The notes under the pieces are model-generated. The model worked only from the letters and a program-made list of their open reading frames with translations, was not told the origin of the DNA and ran no database searches. Shown here one piece after another: positions 5,155 to 64,000 of a DNA stretch of 64,000 nt. Every line of letters begins with the position of its first letter. Position 1 is the stretch's first letter. Made by a program: the position numbers and the translations under genes. Origin of the DNA: a virus; the IMG/VR virus record IMGVR_UViG_3300047548_001818, positions 7,133-71,132 of that record, one strand, 5' to 3'.

Positions 5155-5176
5155 ATTTTTTAAAAGGAGAAATAAC

Positions 5177-5383: not shown

Positions 5384-5399
5384 CAGAAAGTGAGTTAAT

Positions 5400-6154: not shown

Positions 6155-6253
6155 TATAAAAACACATTACACGCCATGTAACTAGCGGTGGTAGCCTAGT
6201 GAAGGGTGCTTCTCCTACCGAGAAGTTTATAGTGTGTTTCTATATGGTTTAAT

Positions 6254-6327
6254 GCGGGTATGATGTAAAGGTAGCCTGTGACCTTGCCAAGGTTAGTGTG
6301 AGAGTTCGATTCTCTCTACCCGCTCCA
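6254..6327 (+). tRNA. tRNA-Gly (anticodon GCC)
   Basis: Same acceptor as the TCC Gly. Anticodon arm tgacc-ttgccaa-ggtta. T arm gagagttcgattctctc. CCA encoded. Confidence 0.7.
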
Positions 6328-6335
6328 AATTTTAT

Positions 6336-6411
6336 GGAGTTATTAGTGTAGTGGTCTGCACACCATGTTGTGACCGTGGTAGTATGAGTTCAATCCTCAT
6401 ATAACTCCCCA
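6336..6411 (+). tRNA. tRNA-His (anticodon GTG) with encoded G-1
   Basis: Extra 5' G pairs with C73. Acceptor gagttat/ataactc. D stem gtgt/gcac. Anticodon arm ccatg-ttgtgac-cgtgg. T arm atgagttcaatcctcat. CCA encoded. Confidence 0.85.
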
Positions 6412-6426
6412 ACGCAGAAAGAAAAT

Positions 6427-6666
6427 ATGAAATTTGTTCCTTTGAATAACAATGTTATTGTGAAACGTAAAGATCCTATTAAAACAACGTCCTCTGGTAT
6501 TGTTCTACAGACTTCTCTAGAACCTGACCGTGGCATCGTTGTTGCAACTTCCACAAACGATGTGGAAATTGGAAATGAATTGTTACTAAATTGGAACAAA
6601 GCATATAAGATTGACAATGAACACTACAAGATTCATGTCAGTGAAATCATTGCCATCTTCGAATAA
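6427..6666 (+). CDS. GroES-like co-chaperonin (Hsp10 family)
   Basis: MKFVPLNNNVIVKRKDPIKTTSSGIVL closely parallels the bacterial GroES N-terminus (MNIRPLHDRVIVKRKE..AGGIVL). 79 aa. Confidence 0.6.
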   Translation: MKFVPLNNNVIVKRKDPIKTTSSGIVLQTSLEPDRGIVVATSTNDVEIGNELLLNWNKAYKIDNEHYKIHVSEIIAIFE

Positions 6667-6672
6667 TTTTTT

Positions 6673-6748
6673 GCCTCGTTAACTCAGCGGTATGAGTAGC
6701 TCCCTTACAAGGAGAAGGTCGGCGGTTCGATCCCGTCACGAGGTACCA
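6673..6748 (+). tRNA. tRNA-Val (anticodon TAC)
   Basis: Acceptor gcctcgt/acgaggt. D stem actc/gagt. Anticodon loop cttacaa. T arm ggcggttcgatcccgtc. CCA encoded. Confidence 0.85.
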
Positions 6749-6752
6749 ATTT

Positions 6753-6826
6753 GCTCTCATAGGTAAATGGCATACCGCATCCTTGGTAAGGATGTATTCC
6801 AAGTTCGATTCTTGGTGGGAGCACCA
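6753..6826 (+). tRNA. tRNA-Thr (anticodon GGT)
   Basis: Acceptor gctctca/tgggagc. Anticodon arm catcc-ttggtaa-ggatg. T arm ccaagttcgattcttgg. CCA encoded. Confidence 0.85.
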
Positions 6827-6833
6827 AATTAAT

Positions 6834-6909
6834 GCAACTCTAGCTGATGTGGTCATAGCGGCGGTCTGAAGAACCGTTGAAAGAGGTTCGATTCCTCTGG
6901 GTTGCACCA
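6834..6909 (+). tRNA. tRNA-Phe (anticodon GAA)
   Basis: Acceptor gcaactc/gggttgc. Anticodon arm gcggt-ctgaaga-accgt. T arm agaggttcgattcctct. CCA encoded. Confidence 0.85.
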
Positions 6910-6915
6910 AAAAGC

Positions 6916-6943
6916 TTGACAAAAAACAGGAATACGCTATAAT
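6916..6943 (+). promoter_or_regulatory. near-consensus sigma70 promoter (TTGACA-16-TATAAT) inside the tRNA array
   Basis: ttgaca aaaaacaggaatacgc tataat. Confidence 0.65.
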
Positions 6944-6953
6944 ACATGTATTC

Positions 6954-7036
6954 GCGGCTGTGGTGGAACGGTAGACACAGGAGACTTAAAATCTCCCGCC
7001 TTGAGCGTGTGGGTTCGAATCCCACCAGCCGCACCA
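6954..7036 (+). tRNA. tRNA-Leu (anticodon TAA), class II
   Basis: Acceptor gcggctg/cagccgc. Anticodon arm ggaga-cttaaaa-tctcc. Long variable arm gccttgagcgtgt. T arm gtgggttcgaatcccac. A73 and CCA. Confidence 0.85.
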
Positions 7037-7042
7037 AATATT

Positions 7043-7119
7043 GCCCTTGTAACCCAATAGGTAGAGGTGGCAGACTCAAAATCTGTTTAGTGTCGGTTCG
7101 AATCTGACCAAGGGTACCA
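7043..7119 (+). tRNA. tRNA with anticodon CAA (Leu-type, A73) but a class-I short variable loop
   Basis: Acceptor gcccttg/caagggt. Anticodon arm gcaga-ctcaaaa-tctgt. 5-nt variable region. T arm gtcggttcgaatctgac. CCA encoded. Confidence 0.6.
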
Positions 7120-7187
7120 TTAAATTTACGCAGTAGTGGCTATGCGTGTAACAAAACGAAACCTCAGGTACATGAGAGTTGTGCCCA

Positions 7188-7277
7188 GGAAGATGCAGTA
7201 AGATGGGTCTTACGCCCGCCTGGAAAGCGGGAGGTTGGTGTTAGCTGGCCGGGGTTCGATTCCTCCTTCTTCCACCA
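7188..7277 (+). tRNA. tRNA-Ser (anticodon GGA), class II
   Basis: Acceptor ggaagat/ttcttcc. D stem gtaa/ttac. Anticodon arm cccgc-ctggaaa-gcggg. Long variable arm. T arm cggggttcgattcctcc. CCA encoded. Confidence 0.8.
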
Positions 7278-7292
7278 ATGTGATAAAAATAC

Positions 7293-7321
7293 AACAAGAT
7301 GGTTGACAAATTACACTTAAC
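7293..7321 (+). promoter_or_regulatory. sigma70-like promoter (TTGACA-17-TAGAAT) followed by an attgagattgagaaa leader
   Basis: ttgaca aattacacttaacttgt tagaat. The downstream 280 nt have no ORF with an RBS before the CDS at 7611. Confidence 0.55.
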
Positions 7322-7610
7322 TTGTTAGAATCTCTATATTGAGATTGAGAAAGTTTTTAGGCAAGGTGCAGCAATAATCCAAACATGAAACAGTTGGTGT
7401 ACTATGGTAGTTGTCTGGAGTACGGAGTCTTGACCGAGTACATTGAAGGACGCTACTGAAGTAGTCCCAGCAAGGAGAGTTTCGATTTCTCTCTGTAATC
7501 AAAAAGTAGAAAACTTGCCTGTTGTTTTTAGGTTAGGTTCAGCAACCCAATAGCATACAACTTGTAATTGTAAACGCAAAAACTAACCTGTTATTTGAAA
7601 GGAGAATGTT

Positions 7611-9032
7611 ATGAACACTTTTGTAGATGCAGTTATTAATCAAGAAGCCCGTACTGCCAATGGCATGAAGGCTCGCAAATCGACCGCAAATGCGGTCGTA
7701 GACTTGTTCTACAATGCAGGTGCAAGCCGTGGTAAAAATATTGTACCAGCTTTTGCTGCTGCTATGGCTGAAAACCGTGAATTGGCTCTCCGTGTGGCTG
7801 CATGGCTTCGTGATGCACGAGGCGGTGCTGGTGAGCGTCAATTGTTTCGTGACATTCTCCTTCATCTGGAAAAAACCGACACTGAAGCCGCTACGGCTCT
7901 GTTGGCCAAAGTTCCAGAACTTGGTCGTTGGGATGATCTTCTGGTCTTTAAAACTAAAGATATGAAGACCGTTGCATACTCCATGTTGGGTGATGCACTG
8001 CGAGCCAAAAATGGTTTGGCTGCAAAATGGACTCCTCGCCAAGGACCTATTGCGGCAGAAATTCGTGAATTCTTCGGAATGTCACCTAAATTCTACCGTA
8101 AATCTTTGGTCGAAATGACCAAAGTGGTTGAAACACAAATGTGTGCCAAAGATTGGGACAACATTAATTTCAGTCATGTACCTTCTGTGGCAACTGCCCG
8201 TTACAAAAAGGCCTTTAACCGTAATACTCCAAAGTATGCGGAATATGTGCAAGCACTTGTAAAAGGTGACAATCCAGAAGTGAAAGTAAACGCATCTGTG
8301 GCATATCCATATGATGTGTTGAAAGGTCGCATTAACAACTACGGTGTAAAATTTGACAAGACCGAATTGGACTTGATTCAAAAGCAATGGGAAGCCTTGC
8401 CAAACTATGTTGGTGATGCTAACATTCTACCTCTAGTTGACGTTTCTGGTTCTATGACCTGTCCCGCAGGTAAGAACACCAAGCTATCTTGCTTGGAAGT
8501 TGCGGTGTCTCTTGGTTTGTATCTTGCAGACAAGAACAAAGGAAAATTCAAGGATACTTTCTTGACTTTCTCTAGCAAGCCAGAACTGTTGCACCTGGTT
8601 GGCAACATTAACCAAAAGATTGACCAAATGGTTAAATCTAAATGGGAAATGGGTACCAATCTAAATGCAGCATTCAAGAAAATTCTTGATACTGCGGTGA
8701 AAGGTAATGTGCCTCAAGAAGAAATGCCAGCAATGGTATTGATTCTGTCTGATATGCAATTCAACGCTTGTGTTGTGCATGATGACAGTGCAATCCAAAT
8801 GATTGCACGTAAGTACCAAGAAGCAGGATACAAAATGCCAAAAGTAGTATTCTGGAACTTGAATGCTGCATATGGTAACGCACCTGTGAAGTTTGACAAG
8901 TCTGGTACTGCTCTGGTTTCTGGGTTCTCTCCAGCAGTAGTGAAGCCATTGCTGAGTGGAGACCTAGATAGCTTCACACCAGAGTCCGTGATGTTGAAGA
9001 CCATCATGGATGACCGTTATAAAGTGCTTTAA
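7611..9032 (+). CDS. vWA (MIDAS) domain protein with a helical N-terminal domain (DUF2828/TROVE-like)
   Basis: C-terminal half carries the D-x-S-G-S MIDAS motif (LPLVDVSGSMTCP) of von Willebrand A domains. AAAGGAGA RBS upstream. Terminator downstream. Confidence 0.5.
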   Translation: MNTFVDAVINQEARTANGMKARKSTANAVVDLFYNAGASRGKNIVPAFAAAMAENRELALRVAAWLRDARGGAGERQLFRDILLHLEKTDTEAATALLAKVPELGRWDDLLVFKTKDMKTVAYSMLGDALRAKNGLAAKWTPRQGPIAAEIREFFGMSPKFYRKSLVEMTKVVETQMCAKDWDNINFSHVPSVATARYKKAFNRNTPKYAEYVQALVKGDNPEVKVNASVAYPYDVLKGRINNYGVKFDKTELDLIQKQWEALPNYVGDANILPLVDVSGSMTCPAGKNTKLSCLEVAVSLGLYLADKNKGKFKDTFLTFSSKPELLHLVGNINQKIDQMVKSKWEMGTNLNAAFKKILDTAVKGNVPQEEMPAMVLILSDMQFNACVVHDDSAIQMIARKYQEAGYKMPKVVFWNLNAAYGNAPVKFDKSGTALVSGFSPAVVKPLLSGDLDSFTPESVMLKTIMDDRYKVL

Positions 9033-9037
9033 CGGTT

Positions 9038-9064
9038 ATGGAGACTCAATGGGTCTCCATTTTG
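9038..9064 (+). terminator. rho-independent terminator
   Basis: atggagac-tcaatg-ggtctccat followed by tttg. Confidence 0.55.
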
Positions 9065-9149
9065 AAACATATGGCACGACTAGAAGTGGATCCATCGTGG
9101 CTAGGCAGCCTTACTATGCATACCGTGTGTTTCAAAATGGAGATATAAA

Positions 9150-9524
9150 ATGAAAATTACTGAAGATCAGTTTCGATTTGAGTGGTTTTCCGGTACAGGA
9201 AAAGGTGGGCAACATCGGAACAAACATCAAAATTGTTGTCGTTGTATACATGAACCAACCGGAATAACTGCAAATGGAACATCTAGCAGAAGCCGTGATG
9301 ACAATAAAAGAAATGCTTTAATCGTCTGTAAAGCTAGAGTTGAAAGATATTTCCATAAAGACACCGAAAGATTTCTTGCAGGCAAAGAACGAATTAGAAC
9401 CTACCATGAACCAGACAATAGAGTTGTCGATCATGCTAGTGGTTTCTCTGACACATATCAGAATGTGGTAATCAAAGGCTTCATCGATGAAATGATTGAA
9501 GCCCGTGCAAAAGTTAAAAGGTAA
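9150..9524 (+). CDS. release-factor GGQ-domain protein (ArfB/peptidyl-tRNA hydrolase-like)
   Basis: FSGTGKGGQHRNKHQN contains the universally conserved GGQ motif of class I release factors and ArfB in the usual G-x-G-G-Q-H-x-N context. 124 aa. Basic C-terminal tail. Confidence 0.6.
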   Translation: MKITEDQFRFEWFSGTGKGGQHRNKHQNCCRCIHEPTGITANGTSSRSRDDNKRNALIVCKARVERYFHKDTERFLAGKERIRTYHEPDNRVVDHASGFSDTYQNVVIKGFIDEMIEARAKVKR

Positions 9525-9600
9525 GCGCCTGTGGCCAAGCGGTTAAGGCAGTGAACTCATAATTCATTGATCGGGGGTTCGAATCCCTCCGGGCGCACCA
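9525..9600 (+). tRNA. tRNA-Met (anticodon CAT)
   Basis: Starts one nt after the stop of the GGQ gene. Acceptor gcgcctg/cgggcgc. D arm gcc-aagcggttaa-ggc. Anticodon arm gtgaa-ctcataa-ttcat. T arm gggggttcgaatccctc. A73 and CCA. Confidence 0.8.
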
Positions 9601-13765: not shown

Positions 13766-14077
13766 ATGGCAAATATTAGAGGAATTAAATTGGTAACGGG
13801 TGAGGAAGTTATTTCCGAGGTAATCATCCAGCCAGATGGTAGATTCTTACTCAAGAATCCTGTGCAGCTAAGGATGGTTCCACCACAGATTGCAGGTAGC
13901 CAGCCATCTATGGGCTTTGTTCCTTTCCCAGCCTTCGGCAGTCAAGGTGAAAATATATTTGTAGAACCACTACATATAGTGTACAATTACACTCCTGACG
14001 AACAAATCGTTTCAAATTACAACCAAATGTTCGGTGCAGGCATCATCACCCCATCTAAACAAATTATAACTGGATAA
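13766..14077 (+). CDS. hypothetical protein (104 aa) upstream of DNA polymerase
   Basis: GGAG RBS 6 nt before ATG at 13766. The track ORF begins at 13748 without an RBS. Confidence 0.45.
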   Translation: MANIRGIKLVTGEEVISEVIIQPDGRFLLKNPVQLRMVPPQIAGSQPSMGFVPFPAFGSQGENIFVEPLHIVYNYTPDEQIVSNYNQMFGAGIITPSKQIITG

Positions 14078-16608
14078 TGAATTTTTACACAAACGTACAA
14101 TGTATTGGCAACAACATCTTTTACCGTGGTGTTCTCGACGGTAAAAGAATCAAAACTAAGATACCTTATCAGCCAACACTTTATGAAAAATCGAGAAGTG
14201 TGAAAAACTTCACATCACTTGAGGGCGACTATCTTATGCCCATCAAGTTTGGTTCAATTCGTGAAGCAAAAGAATACCTGAGACAGTTTGAAAATGTCTC
14301 GGGTAAAACCATTTATGGTCAAAACAGATTCGAATATGCATTTATCGGTGAACAACATAAAGGTATGGTTGAATGGGATTTCGATCAAGTAATGATTGGC
14401 GTACTTGATATTGAGGTCGGCTCAGAAAATGGTTTCCCTGATCCTTATGAAGCAAATGAACCAATTACAGCCATTGCATTGAAATATGTTGGCGGTCACA
14501 TGTTTGTTTGGGGTTGCGGAGACTATAACACAAAAGGTGATGAAAGATATCTGAAGTGTAAAGATGAATATCAACTGTTGAAGCTTTTCTTGAAATTCTG
14601 GCAAGAAAAATGTCCAGATGCACTGACTGGTTGGAACACGAAGTTCTTCGACGTGCCTTATTTGGTGAACCGCATTCGTAAAATTCTCGGTGAAGATGAA
14701 GCTAAAAAGCTTTCTCCTTGGAATATGATATCTCAAAGAGAAGCCTTTGTTATGAACCGAAAACTTGTGGTTTACGACTTGGTTGGTATCGGTGATTTTG
14801 ACTACATGGAACTATACAAGTGGTATGCTCCTGGTGGTAAATCACAAGAATCGTATCGACTAGACAACATCGCAAATGTTGAAATTGGTGAAAAGAAACT
14901 CGACTATTCTGAATATGATTCTCTACATCAACTTTACAAACTAGACTATCAAAAGTTTATTGAATATAACATCAAAGACGTTGAACTGATTCTTCGACTT
15001 GATGATAAACTGAAGTTGCTGGAACTTGGTTTGACTCTTGCTTATGATACCAAAACAAATTACGATGATGTATTTGCACAAACACGCATGTGGGATGCAC
15101 TGACATACAATCATTTGATGGAGCGTAAAATTGTTGTTCCACCAAGAATCATTAAAGAGAAAGATGCCGCTTTCGAAGGTGCTTACGTTAAAGAACCTCA
15201 AGTTGGTCAACACGAATGGGTTGCAAGTTTTGACTTGAATTCTCTGTATCCTCACTTGATGATGCAATACAATATTTCACCAGAAACGTTGATTGAACCT
15301 GAAGATTATAATGAAGCAATGAGAGAAGTTCTTTCACAAGGTGTTTCTGTTGAAAAACTCTTGAACTGTCAAGTTGACACCTCAAGTTTGGTCAATGTAA
15401 CTCTCACACCGAACGGTCAATTTTTCCGCACAGATATTCAAGGCTTTCTTCCGAAGATGATGGAAGAAATGTATGAAGATCGTAAGAAATTTAAAAAGTT
15501 GATGATTCAGGCTAAGAAAGAATACGAGGTAGAAAAAGATGCATCGAAAAAATACGAAATTGAAAAGCGTATTGCCAGATACAACAATCTGCAACTCGCA
15601 AAAAAGGTCTCTCTCAATTCTGCTTATGGCGCTTTGGGTTCTCAGTATTTTAGATTTTACGACCTACGGATGGCTTTGGGTGTCACTACTGCTGGCCAGT
15701 TATCTATTCGTTGGATTGAAAATGCTCTCAACAAATACATGAACGGTCTTTTGAAGACTGAAACTGATTATGTGATTGCATCGGATACTGATTCGATTTA
15801 CTTGCGCCTTGGTGAATTGGTTAAAAAAGTGTATGGTACAAAAGATGGTATCTCTTTACCGAAAGAGAAAATTATCGACTTCATGGACAAAGTTTGTGAA
15901 GATAAAATTCAACCATTCATTGATAAGTCTTATAAAGAGTTGGCTGATTATGTACATGCATTTGCACAAAAGATGCAAATGAAACGTGAAGCTTTGGCCG
16001 ACAAAGGTATTTGGACTGCCAAAAAGCGTTACATCATGCATGTGTATGACAATGAGGGTGTTCGTTACTCTGAACCTGAAATGAAAGTCATGGGTTTGGA
16101 AATGATTAAGTCATCCACTCCTGCACCCGTGCGCGAGAAGATGAAAGATGCACTTCAAATTATGATGAAAGGTACAGAAAGTGATATTCACAATTTCATA
16201 TCTTCATTCAAGGATGAATTTAAAAATCTTGCTGTCGAAGATATTTCTTTCCCGAGAGGTATCAACGGATTGAAAGAGTATGGTGATCGAACCACAATTT
16301 ACAAAAAAGGTACACCAATTCATGTGAAAGGTGCATTACTATATAATTATTATCTACTTGAAAAAGATTTGTCAAAAAAATATCCACTGATCCAAGAAGG
16401 TGAGAAAATCAAATTTACCTATTTGAAGAAACCCAACCCCTTCAAAGATACCGTAATCTCATTTCCTGGTAGACTTCCTCCGGAATTTGACATTCAAGAA
16501 TTTATCGATTATGATATGCAATTCGAAAAAACTTTCCTTGATCCGATTAAGGTTATTTTGGATTGTATGAATTGGACAACAGAGAGAAAAAATACTCTCT
16601 TCGATTGA
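14077..16608 (+). CDS. 43: T4-type family B DNA polymerase (gp43 homologue)
   Basis: Direct colinear matches to T4 gp43. [23 protein letters not shown] vs T4 [40 protein letters not shown] and the YVIASDTDS polymerase motif C. 843 aa. Confidence 0.95.
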   Translation: [843 protein letters not shown]

Positions 16609-46683: not shown

Positions 46684-46833
46684 ATGCTCACTGAAAGTGA
46701 AATCAAAGAAATTGAAGACCGTCTGTATAGTATGTCTTGGGAAGAGTTGCAGGAAACACTGATGCATGTTGAAATGCTCGCTGCAATGAAGGCTAATAAG
46801 ATTGTTTTCTCTGAATTTGATAAGGTGCAGTAA
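46684..46833 (+). CDS. small hypothetical protein (49 aa)
   Basis: AAGGAAA RBS then MLTESEIKEIEDRLYSMSWEEL... Below the ORF-track cutoff. Confidence 0.3.
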   Translation: MLTESEIKEIEDRLYSMSWEELQETLMHVEMLAAMKANKIVFSEFDKVQ

Positions 46834-47216
46834 TGATTGACGACAGAAGTGATAAATTTTGGCACTCTTTTCATCTTTTTGAAGAAATTCTTGATGATAC
46901 ACAAATTGATTGTTTAGTTTATGAACTTATTAAGTTCAGACCCAACTTGGCCAACGATCTTTATTTTGAATTAGATAAAAATTTAGTAAAAAAGACGCCT
47001 TGGCACGAAGAATTGACTAAAGTTGTGCATGAATGGGTCAATCCAACACAAAAAACTTACGGTCCAATTACAATTGAAGATGCCAATGACGGGTCTGGCG
47101 ACGGAATTCTCACTTTTCCGCCGGAATTTCTTGAGGAAACAGGCTGGAAAGAAGGAGACACGATTTCCATGGAAGTTTCCGACGACGGAAAACTAATTTT
47201 GCGAAAAAAAGACTAA
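46833..47216 (+). CDS. hypothetical protein (127 aa)
   Basis: ORF only. Confidence 0.4.
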   Translation: MIDDRSDKFWHSFHLFEEILDDTQIDCLVYELIKFRPNLANDLYFELDKNLVKKTPWHEELTKVVHEWVNPTQKTYGPITIEDANDGSGDGILTFPPEFLEETGWKEGDTISMEVSDDGKLILRKKD

Positions 47217-50333: not shown

Positions 50334-50915
50334 TTGAAAATGCAAACCCAATTTGACCCCTCCGCCGTATCATTTACAGTTGCTGGTAAAGCAATCAAAC
50401 ACCTAGCAAAACTACACCTAAACGAAAAGCTCAAGAACGTTCCATACAAACTCCGAGAATTCACAATAGCCAATTGTGTTCTTTCCGGTGGTTGTTTTGC
50501 GTCCCTTTTCCACAACGAAAAGGTCAACGACTTTGACCTCTACCTCAAAAACATTTCCATGATAGTGGAATTAAACAACCTCCTTAAAGAATACAAAGGT
50601 TTGAATAAAGAATTGGTAGAAGAAGCTTATGCTGATGTTTTCGTAGACGGTAAACTCACAACCATAAAAGCAGTCACCTTAGACAATAGACTACAGTATA
50701 TCACTATGGTGGACTTCCAAACCGCAAAGCAAAACATGGATTATGTCCATTGTACGGTGAGCTATGATCCGTCTAAGGATACTCTATGGCTCTCAGAACT
50801 CCAATTTGATTGCATTCAAAACAAAAAATTGGTTGCTAATAACCTAACATCAATCACTGCTAAAAGGGGAGAAAAATTCCGTAGTAGGGGTTGGGTTTCA
50901 TCATTTAGACCATGA
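50334..50915 (+). CDS. hypothetical protein (193 aa)
   Basis: ORF only. Confidence 0.4.
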   Translation: MKMQTQFDPSAVSFTVAGKAIKHLAKLHLNEKLKNVPYKLREFTIANCVLSGGCFASLFHNEKVNDFDLYLKNISMIVELNNLLKEYKGLNKELVEEAYADVFVDGKLTTIKAVTLDNRLQYITMVDFQTAKQNMDYVHCTVSYDPSKDTLWLSELQFDCIQNKKLVANNLTSITAKRGEKFRSRGWVSSFRP

Positions 50916-51334
50916 AAACGATTATTGCGGGTTCCAGAGACTTCAATGATTTCGATTACATGAAAGCATACCTTGCTACGATACCACCATGGATAGAAAT
51001 CACTGAGGTCGTTTCCGGATGCGCCCAAGGTGCAGATACGCTAGGAGAGAAATGGGCAGAACTCAAAAGAATTCCAGTAAAACGCTTTCCAGCAGAATGG
51101 GAAAGACTAGGTAAGAGAGCAGGTCCAATAAGAAACGCAGAGATGGGAATCTATGCAGAAGGGCTCATTGCTTTTTGGGACGGTAAATCCAGAGGTACAC
51201 AACACATGATACTGTTCATGCAGCAGAATAATAAGTGGACCTATGTGGTACGTACAGATATACCCTGGTGTGGTAAGTATGAAAACCGAAGCCCCGTGTT
51301 AAACAATGTAGAGTATACACAAGAGAGATTATGA
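50912..51334 (+). CDS. SLOG/DUF2493-like Rossmann-fold protein (DprA/LOG-related nucleotide-binding fold)
   Basis: IIAGSRDF...VVSGCAQGADTLGEKWA...GPIRNAEM...FWDGKSRGTQHMI follows the G-x-R / G-A-D / G-T pattern of SLOG-family proteins, from memory. Confidence 0.4.
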   Translation: MKTIIAGSRDFNDFDYMKAYLATIPPWIEITEVVSGCAQGADTLGEKWAELKRIPVKRFPAEWERLGKRAGPIRNAEMGIYAEGLIAFWDGKSRGTQHMILFMQQNNKWTYVVRTDIPWCGKYENRSPVLNNVEYTQERL

Positions 51335-51519
51335 ACTACGTAGAATCATTCTTAACCATATCAATATACCAACTGAACCTATTCTCATTTATGTTAGGTA
51401 TGGTATATACCCTATGTAATGTGCGCTGGGGTAACCAGTCAAAACTCTGGATGCATGTAGTGATTTACACTATGTTCGTAGCATTGTATTATTTTGCGAA
51501 GAGTAATGGTTACGTATAA
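51331..51519 (+). CDS. small membrane protein (62 aa)
   Basis: Two hydrophobic segments. Confidence 0.35.
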   Translation: MNYVESFLTISIYQLNLFSFMLGMVYTLCNVRWGNQSKLWMHVVIYTMFVALYYFAKSNGYV

Positions 51520-51693
51520 ATTTCGAAACTCCTCTGGAACCTCCTGGAAAAAATTTTGAGGATGTGCTAGATAGAAAACTCGAAAATGTGCTGGGGCCTC
51601 CAGAAAATAAATTTTAGAAAAAAAGAGTTTGGGCCATAGGCGAAAATTACTTACATAGCGTTATTTTTAGCACACTGCTGCCATATTTTTAGA

Positions 51694-51720
51694 GCCAAAA
51701 AAGGGCGCCGAAGCGCCCCT
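51694..51720 (-). terminator. rho-independent terminator closing the minus-strand mini-gene cassette array
   Basis: On the minus strand: ggggcgc-ttcg-gcgccc followed by ttttttgg. Confidence 0.7.
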
Positions 51721-51740
51721 AAATCACTGCCAGCCCCAAC

Positions 51741-51839
51741 TTAAACCACTGCCCTCCACACCATCAGGTCCAGAGCAAGCACAACAGCCGCAGCCATACC
51801 AACCACCACGAAACCGATCATTTCTGCTTTAGTATACAT
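51741..51839 (-). CDS. 32-aa hydrophobic peptide
   Basis: MYTKAEMIGFVVVGMAAAVVLALDLMVWRAVV with an AAGGAG RBS. High GC. Confidence 0.4.
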   Translation of the reverse strand: MYTKAEMIGFVVVGMAAAVVLALDLMVWRAVV

Positions 51840-51850
51840 TTGTTTACTCC

Positions 51851-52072
51851 TTAGGCGATTTCTTTACGAATTTGGGACTCTTGCAATTCAGCCTGACGCT
51901 TGGCTGCGGTGCTGAGGTCTTCAGCGAGGAAAACGAGGTCATCAAAGGCCTCGCGGGCAATCTGGCGGTCGTGGGCGTGTTCAGACTTTTCCAGATCACG
52001 GGTGGCATGGAACTTGACCAGAGCCTCGGCGTAACGGATAGCGGCTTGCTCAACGGTGTGGTTCAGAATCAT
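51851..52072 (-). CDS. hypothetical protein (73 aa), island gene
   Basis: AAGGAG RBS. Preceded (upstream on the minus strand) by degenerate module copy R1. Confidence 0.5.
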   Translation of the reverse strand: MILNHTVEQAAIRYAEALVKFHATRDLEKSEHAHDRQIAREAFDDLVFLAEDLSTAAKRQAELQESQIRKEIA

Positions 52073-52095
52073 TTGGTGCTCCTTTGTTTCAGTGG

Positions 52096-52127
52096 TTGGA
52101 TTATGGCGGATCTGGTAGGAATGGCAA
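52096..52127 (-). repeat. promoter-module repeat R1 (degenerate)
   Basis: ggattatggcggatctggtaggaatggcaact, a diverged copy of the ggattatgacagaatccgtggatttggcaacca core. Confidence 0.45.
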
Positions 52128-52163
52128 CTGTATACTTTAGTATTCCACCGGAGTGGTCAACCA

Positions 52164-52343
52164 TTACTTTTCAATACGGACGCACATGGGTTTTTTAGTG
52201 GTCATTGCCGGGCGGGCATCATCCACGGCCTTGTAGAGGGCTACGGCAGCCACCTCACACTTTTCCTTGGAGGAAAACTCCGGTCCCACGCTCCAAGTGC
52301 TGGCGTGACCAAGAACAACCAAAACCCAAACAATCGTGTTCAT
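52164..52343 (-). CDS. 59-aa secreted/signal-peptide mini-protein
   Basis: MNTIVWVLVVLGHASTW... with an AAGGAAACGAA RBS. One codon under the ORF-track cutoff. Confidence 0.45.
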   Translation of the reverse strand: MNTIVWVLVVLGHASTWSVGPEFSSKEKCEVAAVALYKAVDDARPAMTTKKPMCVRIEK

Positions 52344-52378
52344 TTCGTTTCCTTATCTACTATGGAATGGATTATGAC

Positions 52379-52443
52379 AGGATCCGTGGATTTGGCAACC
52401 ACTCCGGTATTGTTGACCGGAGTGGTGGATTACTTGCCATCCT
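52379..52443 (-). promoter_or_regulatory. PeSL-like cassette R2: stem-loop plus sigma70-like promoter (minus-strand TTGCCA-17-CATAAT)
   Basis: Plus strand reads ggattatgacaggatccgtggatttggcaacca then cactccggt-attgttg-accggagtg hairpin. Read on the minus strand this is hairpin, TTGCCA, 17 nt, CATAAT, ccattccatagtag, RBS. Confidence 0.6.
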
Positions 52444-52636
52444 CCCATGTGCCTGTAGTATAATCCACGGCTTCCGCCACCACCTCACCATCCGGACCAA
52501 ACTTGGTGTAAGAATAAAAGTTTACACCAACCACCTGAGTGTAATAACCTTTGGTTTCTTCCACCACTGACATTTCCACATCATATTCCCGGAGAAGGGC
52601 ATGGAGCTTTTGTTTGAATTCTTCGGTTCTGGTCAT
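52430..52636 (-). CDS. hypothetical protein (68 aa), island gene
   Basis: AAGGAGCACACGATG. Immediately downstream of module R3. Confidence 0.5.
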   Translation of the reverse strand: MTRTEEFKQKLHALLREYDVEMSVVEETKGYYTQVVGVNFYSYTKFGPDGEVVAEAVDYTTGTWEDGK

Positions 52637-52660
52637 CGTGTGCTCCTTCGAATCAATGGT

Positions 52661-52693
52661 TGGATTATGACAGAATCCGTGGATTTGGCAACC
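52661..52693 (-). promoter_or_regulatory. PeSL-like promoter module R3
   Basis: ggattatgacagaatccgtggatttggcaacca (core consensus copy). Confidence 0.6.
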
Positions 52694-52699
52694 AGTGGG

Positions 52700-53059
52700 T
52701 TACAGAAGAACCTCTAGGTCCGAGTGGTCCAGGCGGTCCTCAGCCTCAAAGGTCTCCGGTTCAAACTCCATGAGCTTGGGAGCCTTGGGTTCAGCCTTAG
52801 GCTTCGCCGCCTTCACCACCTTGGCTGGCTTGACCTCCTTACGGAGCACCACGGTATGCGGCACCGGTTCTTGAACCACCTTCACACTCTCCAGCACCTG
52901 GCCAGGCTGGCCATACTTTTTATGGAAGAATGCATCCACCTTCTGCCAGGTCTTACGGAAGGCCTCAGCCTTACCACCATACCAGCCTTCGAAACCATTC
53001 CGATCCTTGCGGAAAACAATGGTAAAATCGGGATAACGGACTTGGGCTTTACGTGCCAT
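52700..53059 (-). CDS. 119-aa protein with a Lys/Ala/Pro-rich histone-H1-like segment (possible DNA binder)
   Basis: KVVKAAKPKAEPKAPK tail after a globular N-domain. AAGGAACAAAAATG RBS. Confidence 0.5.
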   Translation of the reverse strand: MARKAQVRYPDFTIVFRKDRNGFEGWYGGKAEAFRKTWQKVDAFFHKKYGQPGQVLESVKVVQEPVPHTVVLRKEVKPAKVVKAAKPKAEPKAPKLMEFEPETFEAEDRLDHSDLEVLL

Positions 53060-53088
53060 TTTTGTTCCTTTAGTGTATAATTAAGAGT

Positions 53089-53175
53089 TTAACGGAGAGC
53101 CATGGCTAGAGCCAAACCCATGGCAATGCCGGACAGGTAGGTTGTAATGAAAATGAGATTTTGAATTTTTTCCAT
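53089..53175 (-). CDS. 28-aa hydrophobic peptide
   Basis: MEKIQNLIFITTYLSGIAMGLALAMALR directly downstream of module R4. Confidence 0.35.
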   Translation of the reverse strand: MEKIQNLIFITTYLSGIAMGLALAMALR

Positions 53176-53204
53176 TTGGTTTCCTTTCTGATTTACTATG
53201 GAAT

Positions 53205-53275
53205 GGATTCTACAGGTTCTGGAAGGTTTGGCAACCACGGTTGGAATAGTTGACCAATCCGGTGGATTATGCGGC
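53205..53275 (-). promoter_or_regulatory. PeSL-like cassette R4 (variant core plus imperfect hairpin)
   Basis: ggattctacaggttctggaaggtttggcaacca followed by ccacggttgg-aatagttgacc-aatccggtgg. Confidence 0.5.
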
Positions 53276-53977
53276 CACTGCCAAGCGGATGACCTTCGCC
53301 ATTTTCCGACCGTGGGCGGGGTAGCCGACCACTGCCACGGACTTATCGTAGCAGGCGCGGCAGCCGTTACACTTTCCACCATGATTGTAAGCACCGCAAA
53401 CCGTAACGCCAGCGGGGACCGTATCGGCATCCGGCAGGATGGTGGAGCCATGCACACCAGCGGTGAAGGTACCATCCACGGCATCGGAAGAAAACCGAAC
53501 CATTACATTGTCCAGCCTTTGCATGGCGGCGATGATGGGCTGGAATTTAGGGAATTTTGCCATGCGGGTCGGCAACCAATGCTTAACGTGAGGAGTGCCA
53601 GCCATAACCTGGTAGATTTTCTCAGCCAGCCCCAGGCTGTACATATCGCCGGAATCAAACCAGCGGAAATACTTGGCTTTTTTGAGGGCTTGGATCATAT
53701 CAGCCACCCAGCCATCCCGCTGCCAGTCTTCCTTATTGAAGGCGCGGGGAGCCTTGACCGTGGAGAATGCATACATTCCCGTGGTGGCGTAGCATCCAGA
53801 GCAGGCGGAGACCAGTTTACCATCGGAACCAACCGAACCAGGGCATGTCTCCAAGGCTTCCAGGGACCAGGATTGGATGCCGTCAAGCTTAGAGGTTTTG
53901 GAGAGCTTTACCATTTGGTGTCCTTGTTGCGTTACGATGGAATGGATTATGACAGAACCGGAGGTTTTGGCAACCAT
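53267..53977 (-). CDS. Cys-rich 236-aa phage protein (possibly gp88-like family), high GC
   Basis: CPGS...CSGCYATTGMYAF...CGAYNHGGKCNGCRACY suggests Zn-binding clusters. Family recollection only. Confidence 0.45.
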   Translation of the reverse strand: MVAKTSGSVIIHSIVTQQGHQMVKLSKTSKLDGIQSWSLEALETCPGSVGSDGKLVSACSGCYATTGMYAFSTVKAPRAFNKEDWQRDGWVADMIQALKKAKYFRWFDSGDMYSLGLAEKIYQVMAGTPHVKHWLPTRMAKFPKFQPIIAAMQRLDNVMVRFSSDAVDGTFTAGVHGSTILPDADTVPAGVTVCGAYNHGGKCNGCRACYDKSVAVVGYPAHGRKMAKVIRLAVAA

Positions 53978-54004
53978 CCTAGGATAGTTGACCGGAAAAG
54001 GAGG
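53944..54004 (-). promoter_or_regulatory. PeSL-like cassette R5
   Basis: ggattatgacagaaccggaggttttggcaacca then tcctaggatagttgaccggaaaaggagg. Confidence 0.55.
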
Positions 54005-54229
54005 TTATTCCTCCTCAGCCTCTTCCTCTTCCTCAAAGTGTTCCAGAAGTTGGTCCCAATCCACGGCGGAGAGGTTGACCATGTCCTTCAGGGGACCATC
54101 CGGCATATCGTCATATTGTTCCTCCAGCATGTAGCGGATGGACTCTACATCCTCACGGGATTCCGGATTGCACCAGACATTGACCAACCAGGTTTCGCGG
54201 TTGGTCCAGCCATTGTAACCTTGAGACAT
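54005..54229 (-). CDS. acidic 74-aa protein with a poly-Glu C-terminus
   Basis: ...HFEEEEEAEEE. AAGGAAACGAAAATG RBS. Downstream of R6. Confidence 0.5.
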   Translation of the reverse strand: MSQGYNGWTNRETWLVNVWCNPESREDVESIRYMLEEQYDDMPDGPLKDMVNLSAVDWDQLLEHFEEEEEAEEE

Positions 54230-54254
54230 TTTCGTTTCCTTTCAAACTATGGAA

Positions 54255-54286
54255 TGGATTATGACAGAATCCGTGGAGATGGCAAC
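54255..54286 (-). promoter_or_regulatory. PeSL-like promoter module R6
   Basis: ggattatgacagaatccgtggagatggcaaca. Confidence 0.55.
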
Positions 54287-54288
54287 AA

Positions 54289-54471
54289 TTATTTGGTTCT
54301 GATTTTAAGATAGAACCGTCCATTGTGGACGTATCCGCGGAGGAGACCAGGCAGCCCGTATTCCTTAGCCATGGCTCGCATGGCTTGGTAGTGGTTGGTT
54401 TTGTGTTTTTTCATCATGGAATGAAGTGTAGCAGAGCCAGAGGATTTGGCAACCATCTGGAAATGACCCAC
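54289..54471 (-). CDS. basic 60-aa protein, first gene of the minus-strand cassette array
   Basis: Follows partial module copy R7 (54436-54455, gccagaggatttggcaacca). Confidence 0.45.
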   Translation of the reverse strand: MGHFQMVAKSSGSATLHSMMKKHKTNHYQAMRAMAKEYGLPGLLRGYVHNGRFYLKIRTK

Positions 54472-54679
54472 CGGATCGGTCGGGTACTGGTTGCCGGGGG
54501 TTCGGATTGTGGTATAATAGACTCATTCGAAAGCGGGACTGGGGTGGACACGGAGGCTGCGCGTCATTCCGCACTGTAATACTTCCGTACTACCGCCGGC
54601 GGAAGACGTTTGGACCATTATAACATGCGGAGCAAAGCTTTGGCAACCAGTCTCAAAAATACTTGACCGGAACACTGTA

Positions 54680-54713
54680 ATACTTTTTGAATACTTGCCA
54701 TTCTCGCTGATTG
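54680..54713 (+). promoter_or_regulatory. plus-strand copy of the same promoter type (TTGCCA-16-CATAAT) at the divergence point
   Basis: ttgcca ttctcgctgattgtgt cataat. Also an extended -10 TGgTATAAT at about 54511-54520. Confidence 0.5.
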
Positions 54714-54755
54714 TGTCATAATAGCATTATTGAAACAACGAATGAAAGTAAAAGC

Positions 54756-54998
54756 ATGAAAGTAGTACAATCGTATTCATCTAAAGAATGTAACGAATTT
54801 GATATTGTCGTCAATGATGTTAAAATTGCATATTATATTGAACATTTCAAAGATGAAAATTGTAATGTTCTAGAAAAAACATTATATGAAATTTATTATG
54901 ATTATAATGAAGAAGATGACGATTATACATCATCTTTTGCAACTGATGATTATAATGAATTGCAAGACGTTATAGATTCAATTTACGAAAATCTGTAA
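54756..54998 (+). CDS. small acidic hypothetical protein
   Basis: Start moved to MKVVQSY, downstream of the promoter -10. The track ORF begins inside the -10. Confidence 0.4.
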   Translation: MKVVQSYSSKECNEFDIVVNDVKIAYYIEHFKDENCNVLEKTLYEIYYDYNEEDDDYTSSFATDDYNELQDVIDSIYENL

Positions 54999-55032
54999 TA
55001 CTTTAGTAATCCAGCACTGTGCTGGGTTAATA

Positions 55033-55064
55033 CTTGTCGGTGGCGGTCGGTGTGTTATAATGGC
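55033..55064 (+). promoter_or_regulatory. hairpin plus sigma70-like promoter (TTGTCG-16-TATAAT, TG-extended -10)
   Basis: cccagcac-agtgctggg hairpin at 55011-55027, then ttgtcg gtggcggtcggtgtgt tataat. Confidence 0.5.
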
Positions 55065-55250
55065 ATTTTCAACAATGAAAGGCACTGTATGAAAACACTG
55101 TATGAAATTACAGTAAAACTAACGGTCTACGCTGAGAATGAGCAAGCCGCTTATGATATTATTGAGAATGATATAGATTCTCTGGTGTCAGAGTCGGAAC
55201 AATTGCAGAATTATGCAATTGATAATGTTGTCACGGTTGAAACGGAGTAA
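55050..55250 (+). CDS. small hypothetical protein (66 aa)
   Basis: ORF only. Confidence 0.35.
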   Translation: MCYNGIFNNERHCMKTLYEITVKLTVYAENEQAAYDIIENDIDSLVSESEQLQNYAIDNVVTVETE

Positions 55251-57408: not shown

Positions 57409-57563
57409 CCCTATTGCCATCCTCACCGGTTCTGGTATAATCCACGTCACACCAACCAAGGAAACGACATGAATTCGATAAAATACCGTATCTATTATTT
57501 CAAGAGAATGGTACATTCTTTTAAAGCCGGATTCATTTTCCTTTGGTATGTTATTCGGGGTAA

Positions 57564-62544: not shown

Positions 62545-62615
62545 AACTTTCTACTGACTTGCCATTTTCTCCAGAAGTGGTAGAATACGTACATCAAATT
62601 TTGAAAGGAAGAAAA

Positions 62616-63798: not shown

Positions 63799-63996
63799 AT
63801 GATAATTGTTAAGGTTAATCTAAACAAGTATCTTTATACTTTACTTGGCCGCCAAGAGTTAATAGATTCTTGGTGGCATTCTCCCAATAAAGCATTTGAA
63901 AATAAAACTCCTGATGAAGTATATCAATCAGGCGAAGAAGGTCGGGAAAAAGTTGCAAAATATATCCTAGGATTTATTGGCGCCGGCTATAGTTGA
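63799..63996 (+). CDS. small hypothetical protein (65 aa)
   Basis: GGAG RBS then MIIVKVNLNK. Confidence 0.35.
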   Translation: MIIVKVNLNKYLYTLLGRQELIDSWWHSPNKAFENKTPDEVYQSGEEGREKVAKYILGFIGAGYS

Positions 63997-64000
63997 CCGG

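Follow-up and report, generated by a model that had tools for sequence, protein, structure and literature searches.

The window analysed here, a 64,000-nt stretch of DNA, comes from an uncultured freshwater phage which is a distant T4-type myovirus. This assignment is based on its gp43-type DNA polymerase, which shares ~50% identity with those of cyanomyoviruses and Pelagibacter phage Mosig; a DnaB-like helicase and the large subunit of ribonucleotide reductase are also encoded. The window contains 28 tRNA genes, in front of which lie near-consensus sigma70 promoters of the plain TTGACA/TAnAAT type.

Genes and composition of the GC-rich island

An earlier note on this DNA had described a high-GC island of nine small minus-strand genes ending at a strong terminator, and both the composition and the gene count were borne out. 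The high-GC segment spans 51,601–54,700 in 400-nt windows; in 500-nt windows GC was 0.47–0.52 over 51,501–54,500 and 0.35–0.42 in the flanks on both sides. Overall the island (51,700–54,700) has ~50% GC vs ~37% in its surroundings, with a sharp step at both edges. GC3 was 0.48–0.65 in the nine island ORFs, compared to 0.14–0.44 for most other ORFs and ~0.3 for the backbone. All nine ORFs are closed by one intrinsic terminator at 51,701–51,720 (-), AGGGGCGC-TTCG-GCGCCCTT then TTTTGG (8-bp stem, 6 GC pairs, T run). A 371-aa plus-strand ORF at 53,198–54,313 was rejected as an antisense artefact (dN ~ dS, third-position identity 0.78).

Codon usage, which the note had proposed to check together with GC, also differs between island and backbone. 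The codons ATA and TTA are never used in the island, and CCA, TCA, AGA and CTA each make up ≤ 6% of their own codon families, whereas the backbone favours all six. Island relative synonymous codon usage (RSCU) correlated with that of the GC-rich T7-like phage L029, in which a GP88 homologue is the first early gene, at r = 0.76–0.82, vs r = -0.03 to 0.08 with the phage's own backbone.

Such a sharp compositional step at both edges could arise if a GC-rich contig had been mis-joined into an AT-rich phage contig, an assembly chimera being one of the outcomes which the note had itself named as fatal to its reading. We consider this extremely improbable. The same left junction (the terminator plus a conserved stretch at 51,518–51,689) and the same right junction (the control region described below) are present in independent assemblies from JGI, ENA, NCBI, Logan and IMG/VR, and promoters of the island type also serve low-GC genes (from 54,695 and 57,410). 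As this layout is found again in many metagenome assemblies made independently of one another, the island is not a chimera.

In the direction of transcription, the first gene of the array (54,289–54,417, -) encodes a 42-aa basic protein which is conserved in the relatives L114 and L036/L037; it is predicted to be leaderless, as its ATG at 54,417 lies exactly 7 nt after a -10 hexamer. It is followed by a 74-aa acidic protein (54,005–54,229, -) whose N-terminus matches DUF7249 over residues 1–23 only (29.7 bits, cut-off 27) and which has homologues of 86–90% identity in L027 and L034. The next gene (53,267–53,914, -) encodes a GP88-family protein (PF17338, E = 1.6e-26, 94 bits; 4,650 homologues), the only island protein with a clear family match and the only cassette common to all relatives. 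The note had described it as a Cys-rich protein of 236 aa; there are indeed two invariant Cys clusters, but the 236-aa ORF includes the gene's own promoter and the gene after the ribosome-binding site encodes 215 aa.

Downstream lie a 28-aa hydrophobic ORF (53,089–53,175, -), without a homologue among the relative loci compared, and, following it, a 119-aa protein (52,700–53,059, -) with 134 homologues. The N-terminal domain of the latter is conserved, and its K/A/P-rich stretch is in the middle rather than at the tail, where it had been noted. The genes for a 68-aa protein (52,430–52,636, -) and a 59-aa protein whose N-terminus is hydrophobic and which has two Cys (52,164–52,343, -) are both ORFans among the relative loci compared. 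A 73-aa gene (51,851–52,072, -; GC3 0.61) has a homologue in L027 at 52–54% amino-acid identity, and the array ends with a 32-aa hydrophobic ORF (51,741–51,839, -) whose Shine-Dalgarno sequence (SD) lies 11 nt past the stop of the 73-aa gene and which has a 31-aa counterpart in L034/L035 (61% identity).

Promoter modules and the divergent control region

A module with the core TGGTTGCCA-N16-(C/T)A(T/G/C)A(A/C)T-CCATTCCAT precedes 7 of the 9 genes. It had been said that almost every gene has its own copy; this holds for these seven, but the 119-aa and 32-aa genes have no module of their own and are coupled to the gene upstream. The hexamer spacing, previously given as 17, was counted as 16. Each copy matches the sigma70 hexamers at 9–11 of 12 positions, with a TG before the -10 in most; the -35 is invariably TTGCCA, with a non-consensus C, and the spacer and initial transcribed sequence are partly conserved. 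A motif search, as the note had suggested, placed the modules almost exclusively in the island: the 30-mer core occurs three times at ≤ 3 mismatches (0 in shuffles), GGTTGCCA occurs six times, all within the island (1.7 expected), and a PWM built from the copies found the seven island copies and one at 57,410 (+), with none in shuffles.

All seven island copies are on the minus strand: P1 (54,412–54,456, PWM score 37), P2 (54,245–54,289, score 61), P3 (53,933–53,995 including an upstream box CCGGTCAACTAT, score 65), P4 (53,194–53,238, score 50, -10 TAGAAT), P5 (52,651–52,695, score 52), P6 (52,358–52,402, score 64) and P7 (52,087–52,131, score 44, TTGCCA-16-CATAAT-CCAACCA). The view that degenerate copies reflect ongoing turnover is partly right, but the TACACT -10 of P1, which is preceded by TG, is itself conserved in L114 and L034.

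An SD and ATG lie 25–35 nt downstream of modules. In 10 of 43 distinct modules the distance from the -10 to an ATG is exactly 7 nt (~0.7 expected by chance), including in L027 the ATG of GP88's conserved N-terminus; leaderless mRNAs are therefore implied, which supports reading the modules as promoters. The T4 late motif TATAAATA does not occur in the island. From the consensus we infer that the modules are sigma70-like promoters, probably used early and by host sigma70.

It is possible, though rather unlikely, that the modules are instead activator-dependent (middle-type) promoters or operators, with a phage or host factor acting on a GGTCAAC box and/or on TGGTTGCCA. The invariant C of the -35 and the partial conservation of spacer and initial transcribed sequence would fit such a factor, as would the presence, in roughly half of the 43 modules, of GGTCAA at a fixed 14–15 nt 5' of the -35, the enrichment of the 8-mer CCGGTCAA/TTGACCGG (5 vs 1.1 expected in the window, 6 vs 0.5 in L027) and the abundance of further conserved boxes in the control region. 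However, modules without the box keep the rest of the module, and the extended (TGn), near-consensus -10 usually lowers the need for an activator. The plain promoters of the tRNA cluster also indicate that host sigma70 recognition is available to this phage.

The array begins at a control region from which genes are read in both directions. An eighth minus-strand promoter, P0 (at 54,646, within 54,617–54,670), is the outermost of the leftward promoters; it has the sequence TTGCCA-18-TATAAT and an upstream CCGGTCAA box. Facing it is a rightward promoter (TTGCCG-16-TATAAT) with a conserved ~35-nt leader, ATTCGAAAGCGGGACTGGGGTGGACACGGAGGCTG (together 54,491–54,559, +). The leader follows a promoter in the window, L002 (twice), L017, L019, L021, L027 (twice), L034 and L038; an Rfam search gave no match to it, and no consensus fold was found. 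The plus-strand copy pointing the other way which the note had reported is also present, as a promoter of the same type at 54,695–54,722 (+; TTGCCA-16-CATAAT) that precedes the first of the low-GC early genes (54,756–54,998). The sole full module copy outside the island (57,410–57,454, +; PWM score 39.6) likewise precedes a low-GC gene, at a local GC of 0.37.

The note had further claimed a hairpin next to several copies. Only one strong hairpin was found in the island, CCACTCCGGT-N7-ACCGGAGTGG at 52,399–52,425 (-), which lies just upstream of P6, abuts its -35 and has no T run after it (-19.6 kcal/mol, z = -5.9). The P3 box CCGGTCAACTAT can pair with ATGGTTGCC, overlapping the -35 (-15.5 kcal/mol, z = -3.5). 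Spacer inverted repeats are small, and folding scores better than z = -2 were obtained for only 16 of the 43 upstream regions (mean z -1.8). Support here for the stem-loop half of the PeSL (promoter-early stem-loop) definition is weak.

Exchange of cassettes among relatives

We compared cassette content with relatives, as had been proposed, and found replacements, insertions and permutations which break at module edges. In the closest relative, L114 (GP88 96% amino-acid identity, flanks 86–94% nucleotide identity), the 74-aa DUF7249 gene is replaced by an unrelated 83-aa ORF, with homology breaking at 54,249, the end of the module core of P2 (left breakpoint), and at 53,993, the start of the next module, P3 (right breakpoint). 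L114 also carries two extra cassettes between duplicate modules after GP88, with P4 as the insertion breakpoint, and different cassettes downstream of the 119-aa gene. The order of GP88 and the DUF7249 gene is swapped in L034/L035, and in L027 GP88 and the K/A/P-rich gene are on the opposite arm.

As read from these comparisons, the combination of replacement and insertion at module edges, permutation and change of arm is the signature of PeSL cassettes. Together with the gp43 polymerase and the module promoters, it supports the suggestion that these are gene-shuffling cassettes of a T4-type hyperplastic region. The module arrays are confined to this lineage and almost always lie within segments of ~50% GC. 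It should be noted that the set of relatives is biased by ascertainment, since most were found via module or island-protein searches. A backbone gene led to only one long relative, L002, in which the leader, a weak module and a GC-rich segment are all present. Frequent intragenomic conversion is not evident, since modules are barely more alike within genomes (0.60) than between them (0.57; 227 of 5,000 permutations).

An array of short cassettes with a conserved repeat between them could also suggest a system of site-specific cassettes, integron-like or otherwise, or else a satellite or mobile element that has integrated. We regard this as very improbable: no integrase or recombinase was found by Pfam among the called genes ≤ 10 kb either side, the position is fixed across the lineage, and the repeats have the look of promoters, with start codons spaced at a fixed distance from them, rather than of imperfect palindromes of the attC kind.

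Origin and upkeep of the GC content

The note had taken the composition as a signature of foreign origin. Recent horizontal import, of the block or of single cassettes from a GC-rich phage or host and still unameliorated, has some points in its favour. GP88 homologues with 70–74% amino-acid identity occur in phages of other types with 52–56% GC, and are the first early gene in one T7-like, one 60-kb and one ~39-kb phage; the island's codon usage resembles that of T7-like L029 (r = 0.8), and the lower GC3 of some lineages (0.49 in L040, 0.54 in L018) could be partial amelioration. Recent import is nevertheless unlikely. Every relative examined, L002 included, has a GC-rich island in the same position, and orthologous cassettes have between-lineage dS of ~1–1.7 (near saturation) while GC3 is still 0.49–0.71. 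The T4-type GP88 copies group together, separately from the non-T4 copies, and the GC-rich phages with GP88 homologues lack the promoter modules. Polarised synonymous changes in GP88 are balanced (65 GC to AT, 58 AT to GC), with an implied equilibrium GC3 of 0.59, compared to 0.37 for a backbone peptidase-like gene in the same lineages; these are parsimony estimates at high divergence, each drawn from a single gene (GP88, with 215 codons, and the one control). It is plausible that the island arose long ago in GC-rich phages or still exchanges genes with them.

We therefore favour, with a probability of roughly 0.7, a reading in which a divergent early control region has the island as its leftward arm, with the cassettes forming a PeSL-type array whose composition is at its own equilibrium. 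Each cassette consists of an 85–95 bp module and a small gene, with GP88 as the conserved core cassette. The module comprises, in order, a box CCGGTCAAC 14–15 nt from the -35, the -35 itself (TGGTTGCCA), a partly conserved 16-nt spacer, the extended -10 TGnCATAAT, and CCATTCC, which runs to the predicted transcription start. Beyond this start is a conserved 5'UTR that contains AAGGA or, alternatively, a leaderless ATG. A host sigma70-type RNA polymerase would initiate 7 nt past each -10 and, as a single clear terminator closes the array at its far end, transcripts would be nested and add up along the array. The modules would have sufficient length to give the phage's own recombination machinery portable homology, through which cassettes would be deleted, inserted, replaced and permuted among co-infecting relatives; the shuffling itself is shown by the genome comparison.

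The cassettes use a codon dialect independent of the A-ending codons which the 28 phage tRNAs serve. This dialect matches that of the GC-rich T7-like phage L029, which has no tRNA genes. Under the cassette-array reading, GC3 would be held at ~0.6. The candidate causes are, in order of preference, selection for translation by host tRNAs during the first minutes of infection, ongoing exchange with a pool of GC-rich 'first-early' genes, and GC-biased gene conversion at a recombination hot spot. The first of these fails to generalise: GC3 is low in the rightward early genes, although their promoters are of the same type. It may also be set against the host-tRNA explanation that the phage's tRNA genes themselves lie behind near-consensus sigma70 promoters.

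The cassette island, its genes and its promoter modules

The window encodes a gp43-type DNA polymerase (14,077-16,608) with about 50% identity to the cyanomyovirus and Pelagibacter phage Mosig enzymes, together with other replication genes, including a DnaB-like helicase and the large subunit of ribonucleotide reductase. A near DNA search against cultured phages gave no match to the window, and in a distant DNA search the sole match was GP88, a gene of the island, in two uncultured "Manatee Spring" records. Judging from these core genes and the lack of a near cultured match, this is a distant, uncultured T4-type myovirus. An exact match of the GP88 protein assigns the window to a 179-kb JGI metagenome contig (3300043399 Ga0451681_0000013). 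Freshwater samples were the source of most related contigs, and GP88 loci in genome collections were found in MAGs of many phyla, mostly freshwater; these MAGs were rejected as a means of naming the host, as the contigs are probably mis-binned phage.

The island (51,700-54,700, minus strand) had been noted as richer in GC than its surroundings, and computation agreed: GC was 0.47-0.52 over 51,501-54,500 (500-nt windows) versus 0.35-0.42 on either side, and third-position GC (GC3) was 0.48-0.65 in the nine island ORFs versus approximately 0.3 elsewhere. The nine minus-strand mini-genes described in the earlier note are all real open frames, but their sizes range from 28 to 215 aa and not up to 236 aa; the "236-aa" ORF includes its own promoter, and the actual gene is the 215-aa GP88 (53,267-53,914). 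A 371-aa plus-strand ORF was rejected as a gene, being an antisense shadow of GP88 (dN ~ dS, third-position identity 0.78).

The 215-aa protein matched the GP88 Pfam family (PF17338) at 94 bits against a cut-off of 24.4 (E = 1.6e-26), and its C-terminus matched DUF7227 (36 bits vs 27). Its best cultured matches were in Acinetobacter phages (49% identity), its AlphaFold model had a pLDDT of 76.5 and a PDB sequence search found no match. Literature searches for GP88, PF17338 or DUF7227 returned only unrelated progranulin papers and no function for the family. GP88 has over 4,600 homologues and, judging from this locus, would be a widespread first-early gene present in at least four phage architectures, which makes it a sensible target for functional work. 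The 74-aa acidic protein (54,005-54,229) matched DUF7249 (PF23907) at 29.7 bits vs 27, with only residues 1-23 aligned, to positions 1-23 of the 93-position profile. For the 119-aa protein (52,700-53,059) there were 134 homologues, mostly in relatives of the window phage; tblastn searches of cultured phages with the 74-aa and 119-aa proteins yielded no useful matches. Two ORFs, of 28 and 32 aa, are single hydrophobic helices, and the N-terminus of the 59-aa ORF is signal-like. The island genes may have anti-defence roles. An Rfam scan of 51,000-55,200 at E up to 1 returned no matches.

Among the flanking genes scanned against Pfam (50,340-50,915, 50,912-51,334 and 46,833-47,216), a YAcAr/SLOG-family protein was confirmed (E = 1.9e-12), and precomputed tables add Gad2-like (PF26128) and MazE-like proteins. 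The Gad2 label of the neighbouring gene was set aside, as it came from the precomputed table only and our own Pfam scan at E up to 0.01 gave no Gad2 match. In the relative L036, genes for Tad3, Gad2 and a SegE-type GIY-YIG protein lie near the island.

The repeated module reads, on the coding strand, TGGTTGCCA, 16 nt and (C/T)A(T/G/C)A(A/C)T, usually after TG, then CCATTCCAT, and is followed by a short 5'UTR with AAGGA and an ATG. The repeat is far above chance, with seven island copies (P1-P7) found by its position weight matrix and none in shuffled sequences. As a promoter, TTGCCA-16-(C/T)A(T/G/C)A(A/C)T gives hexamers with 9-11 of 12 matches, with the TG in most copies, and AAGGA or AGGA lies 5-9 nt before the ATG in P2-P7. 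A module had been claimed upstream of nearly every gene, at a spacing of 17; seven of the nine genes do have their own copy, the other two (119 aa and 32 aa) each being coupled to its upstream neighbour, but the spacing is 16. An eighth leftward promoter, at 54,646 (P0), has a spacing of 18 nt.

Among the 43 distinct modules of the window and its relatives, 10 have an ATG exactly 7 nt after the -10, where approximately 0.7 would be expected by chance. Transcription from sigma70 promoters normally starts at this distance. The 42-aa gene that opens the window array is leaderless in this way, and in the relative L027 the leaderless ATG is the start of the conserved GP88 N-terminus, with no space for a ribosome-binding site. 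The exact spacing supports reading the modules as promoters. The T4-type late motif is absent from the island. The phage's 28 tRNA genes (176-9,600) lie behind near-consensus TTGACA/TAnAAT promoters, which implies that host polymerase reads sigma70-type signals; several of these promoters have 16/17-nt spacing, and a shared TTGAGAAATCA...GTTCTTTAAAAAGTTA sequence lies downstream of some of them. An upstream 8-mer (CCGGTCAA/TTGACCGG) is enriched, and roughly half of the modules have it at a constant distance of 14-15 nt from the -35; that it is an activator site is a live alternative. A further TTGACCGG box was found at the very end of the window (63,993-64,000, plus strand), in the low-GC rightward early region.

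All copies have the same non-consensus C in TTGCCA, and their spacers are partly conserved (57-60% identity between copies), which shows that the modules are related by descent and not convergence. Concerted evolution of the modules within a genome was marginal at best (0.60 vs 0.57) and was dropped. TTGCCA-16-type promoters also occur in the low-GC rightward early region (62,559-62,586 and 57,410-57,454, both plus strand), so the promoter family extends beyond GC-rich DNA, to which the full module is almost restricted.

Several copies had been described as carrying an adjacent hairpin. The sole strong hairpin among the island copies is at 52,399-52,425 (z = -5.9). A weaker pairing, of GGTCAACTATCC in the upstream box with GGATGGTTGCC, recurs in some copies and overlaps the -35 there (z = -1.7 to -3.5), and 16 of the 43 upstream regions had z < -2. 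There were no T runs after the module hairpins. Covariation in the GGTCAAC/GTTGCC pairing is not claimed, since by-eye counts from the module listing were mixed. Spacer inverted repeats were slightly enriched, and the mini-palindromes were rejected as the stem-loop on account of their tiny size and slight enrichment.

The array closes, as the earlier note had it, at one clear intrinsic terminator (51,701-51,720); the only other minus-strand terminator-like site, at 54,317-54,331, is weak. Between the closing terminator and the end of a convergent 62-aa gene lies a non-coding stretch (51,518-51,689) which is 72-78% identical in L027, L034 and L114 and holds repeated TTTTC(T/C)GGAGG...TTTCGA units.

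Cassette exchange between relatives and comparison with known systems

More than a dozen related contigs were retrieved from IMG/VR, JGI, ENA, NCBI and Logan assemblies by scanning for the module and by searches with the island proteins, so that most were found via the island itself. One long relative, L002, came from a search with a backbone protein, and it has the conserved leader, a weak module and a GC-rich segment. Each relative has a backbone of 34-41% GC and a segment of approximately 50% GC at the same place, adjoining the divergent early region, and nearly all matches to the position weight matrix in the relatives lie within these segments. In a 19-mer scan of metagenome contigs, approximately 15 of 35 matches were true module arrays and the others arose by chance. 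The recurrence of the same layout in independent assemblies rules out the assembly chimera which had been named as a possible refutation, and makes the island a trait of the lineage.

The expectation that cassettes shuffle genes was borne out by comparison with these relatives. The closest, L114, has a GP88 with 96% amino-acid identity and flanks with 86-94% nucleotide identity, and carries an unrelated 83-aa ORF in place of the DUF7249 cassette of the window: homology ends at 54,249, the end of ...CATAATCCATTCCAT, and restarts at 53,993, the start of the upstream box of the next module. A further breakpoint is at 53,198, two extra cassettes lie between duplicate modules after GP88, and the cassettes downstream of the 119-aa gene differ again. 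In L034 and L035 the order is GP88-DUF7249, as opposed to DUF7249-GP88 in the window, and the breaks in L034 (query positions 1215, 1505 and 2328) are module edges. L027 carries GP88 on the opposite arm, together with a K/A/P-rich protein that is longer than that of the window. GP88 was found in all relatives and the DUF7249 and 119-aa domains in several, while the 28-, 59- and 68-aa ORFs had no homologue in any fetched relative. From sequence comparison, this shuffling pattern is the one that defines promoter-early stem-loop (PeSL) cassettes (PMC2839356, PMC4122927).

PeSL cassettes have been described in the T4-type phages RB49/phi1, T4/PST and KVP40/nt-1 (Arbiol et al. 2010, PMC2839356; Comeau et al. 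2014, PMC4122927). In these systems a stable stem-loop inside or beside the promoter is described as serving as a terminator or attenuator, and recombination between modules as yielding cassette mini-circles. The architecture proposed in the earlier note held up in the following respects: a conserved, apparently sigma70-like promoter in an intergenic module of approximately 100 bp; a Shine-Dalgarno sequence and ATG at the 3' end of the module (P2-P7), with a leaderless variant at 10 of the 43; a setting among small ORFans, here nine ORFs of 28-215 aa of which three lack a homologue in the fetched relatives, within a hyperplastic region of a T4-type phage; and indels, replacements and displacements between relatives which break at modules (L114, L034). 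As in a subclass of PeSLs, a predicted stem-loop overlaps or adjoins the -35 in some island copies. Unlike PeSLs, the island modules have no AT-rich upstream region, and their upstream 25-30 nt carry a fixed GC-rich box (CCGGTCAAC...GGATGG); the stem-loop is inconsistent among them, the -35 is TTGCCA with 16-nt spacing and roughly one copy in four is leaderless. The island cassettes also form a separate block of 50% vs 37% GC with its own codon-usage equilibrium across the lineage; the term "GC content" does not appear in the main text of PMC2839356. In this new lineage the locus is a genuine PeSL-type cassette array with clear limits, and it is unusual in three ways: its GC-rich codon dialect is maintained, some of its module copies are leaderless, and a fixed upstream box replaces the AT-rich tract. 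PeSLs have so far been described from pairs of cultured T4-type phages of enteric bacteria and vibrios, with PeSL-like sequences in some Aeromonas phages, and this locus extends them, with unusually clean breakpoints, to an abundant, uncultured freshwater lineage.

Like the morons of lambdoid phages, the island consists of accessory genes with their own promoters and a composition unlike that of their neighbours. Morons, reportedly described by Juhala, Hendrix et al. in 2000, are inserted singly; each brings its own terminator and lacks conserved homology at its flanks, and expression is usually from the prophage. PeSLs are contrasted with morons in PMC2839356, and the island too differs from them, as an array with homologous modules in a lytic T4-type phage; we found no single gene with its own promoter and terminator, the whole array ending at one clear terminator. 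The tandem arrangement of small exchangeable cassettes parted by a repeat is shared with integron arrays. Unlike integrons, the island has no integrase, attC-like sites or single Pc promoter, each cassette having its own promoter, and exchange probably runs on homology; neither the called genes within 10 kb nor the scanned ORFs held an integrase domain, and the repeats are promoter-like and not attC-like.

Codon usage and the origin of the high GC content

ATA and TTA are unused in the island, and CCA, TCA, AGA and CTA each make up at most 6% of their codon family. The avoided codons are those preferred by the backbone and read by the phage's U34 tRNAs; the island favours CTG/CTC, GCC, ACC, TCC, CGC and AAG. 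The 28 tRNA genes cover all 20 amino acids, with mostly U34 or G34 anticodons, and by simple wobble rules the set leaves nine codons unreadable (CCC, CCT, CGG, CTC, CTT, GCC, GCT, GTC and GTT), several of which are preferred codons of the island.

Relative synonymous codon usage (RSCU) of the island was uncorrelated with its own backbone (r = -0.03 to 0.08) and correlated with that of L029 (r = 0.76-0.82), also with GP88 left out. L029 is a T7-like phage of 56% GC, without tRNA genes, in which a GP88 homologue (490-1,134, 74% identity) is the first gene, upstream of a T7-type RNA polymerase. A GP88 homologue also heads the early operon of a 60-kb phage (L031, 10,001-10,648) and is first in the early region of a phage of approximately 39 kb, where it adjoins ArdC-N and a DNA methylase (L039, 5,001-5,651). 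These homologues are 70-74% identical and come from three unrelated types of GC-rich phage, the T7-like one being a podovirus. This early position of GP88 in GC-rich phages and the codon match to L029 make a GC-rich source, or a shared pool, plausible for the island genes.

The composition had also been taken as a signature of foreign origin. A recent import is disfavoured by the grouping of the T4-type GP88 copies apart from other copies, by dS between lineages of 1.0-1.7 for island genes (backbone genes being saturated) and by the balance of substitutions. GC3 was 0.49-0.71 in every lineage. When synonymous third-position changes were polarised on five terminal branches, GP88 had 65 GC->AT and 58 AT->GC changes, with per-site rates of 0.164 and 0.235 and an implied equilibrium GC3 of 0.59; for the neighbouring 740-aa peptidase-like gene, in the same genomes by the same procedure, the implied equilibrium was 0.37. 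The island is therefore at its own compositional equilibrium. A cassette pool which is compositionally separate from its genome, and still so at synonymous saturation, has not been reported for PeSLs, and the island offers a testable counter-example to the heuristic that odd GC means recent transfer.

Candidate causes would be selection for host-like codons in first-minute genes, continued exchange with GC-rich phages and GC-biased conversion in a recombination hot spot. We put at roughly three in ten the reading in which the island is a deliberately kept, host-like codon dialect of first-minute genes, fed from a pool via the modules, or alternatively a hot spot of GC-biased conversion. Under the dialect reading, an AT-rich, tRNA-rich genome would hold a second codon dialect for its first-minute genes, GP88 above all, which also comes first among the early genes of unrelated T7-like and siphovirus-like phages; host-like composition would allow expression by unmodified host machinery before the phage tRNAs and takeover functions act, or might instead provide escape from the silencing of AT-rich DNA; and through its PeSL-type modules the lineage would be able to tap and reshuffle a first-minute gene pool shared across phage families. 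Selection for host-like codons could account for the high GC3, but the rightward early genes are AT-rich despite the same promoter type, and the near-consensus sigma70 promoters of the tRNA genes imply that these too are transcribed early. GC-biased gene conversion, if it were the cause, would make this the first clear case in a phage recombination hot spot. Codon preferences that differ between gene sets of one phage genome, tied to expression timing and phage tRNAs, are described in, for example, PMC5683454 and PMC12482277. The window phage resembles these in having such sets, and differs in that the divergence is extreme (RSCU r ~0), limited to a single 3-kb block and tied to a specific promoter module, and in that other putative early genes do not share the codon usage of the island.

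The divergent control region

The divergent control region (54,420-54,760) is the best conserved part of the locus, with 84% nucleotide identity to L034 and 86% to L114, exceeding most of the coding sequence. A conserved leader of approximately 35 nt, ATTCGAAAGC(A/G)(G/A)GACTGGGGTGGACG..G.GGCTG, directly follows a rightward sigma70-like promoter (TTGCCG-16-TATAAT) in all relatives: at 54,491-54,559 on the plus strand of the window, at ~17,945 and ~18,518 in L002, at ~9,346 and ~7,369 (minus strand) in L027, at ~4,832 (minus strand) in L034, at ~9,647 in L019, and in L017, L021 and L038. In L027, two leader copies bracket the GC-rich cassettes on one arm. The leader had no Rfam match, and a structured RNA is not claimed, the consensus fold having six weak pairs and no compensatory changes. 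It could hold a mini-ORF of 6-11 codons, (M/V)-D-x-x-A-x-(R).

The leftward promoter P0 (54,646) and the leader promoter (54,491, rightward) are face-to-face, so their transcripts would overlap by approximately 90 nt; the interval between the two promoters holds the 10-bp palindrome CCGCCGGCGG (54,593-54,602). TTCGAA-type boxes were not enriched and were rejected as a shared operator. With its face-to-face promoters, conserved leader and repeated boxes, the region is a candidate early switch. The 11-mer CTGTAATACTT has exactly three copies in the 64 kb (54,574, 54,675 and 54,993, plus strand), all within 430 bp of the control region, and may be an operator; L034 and L035 have two copies at the same 101-nt spacing.
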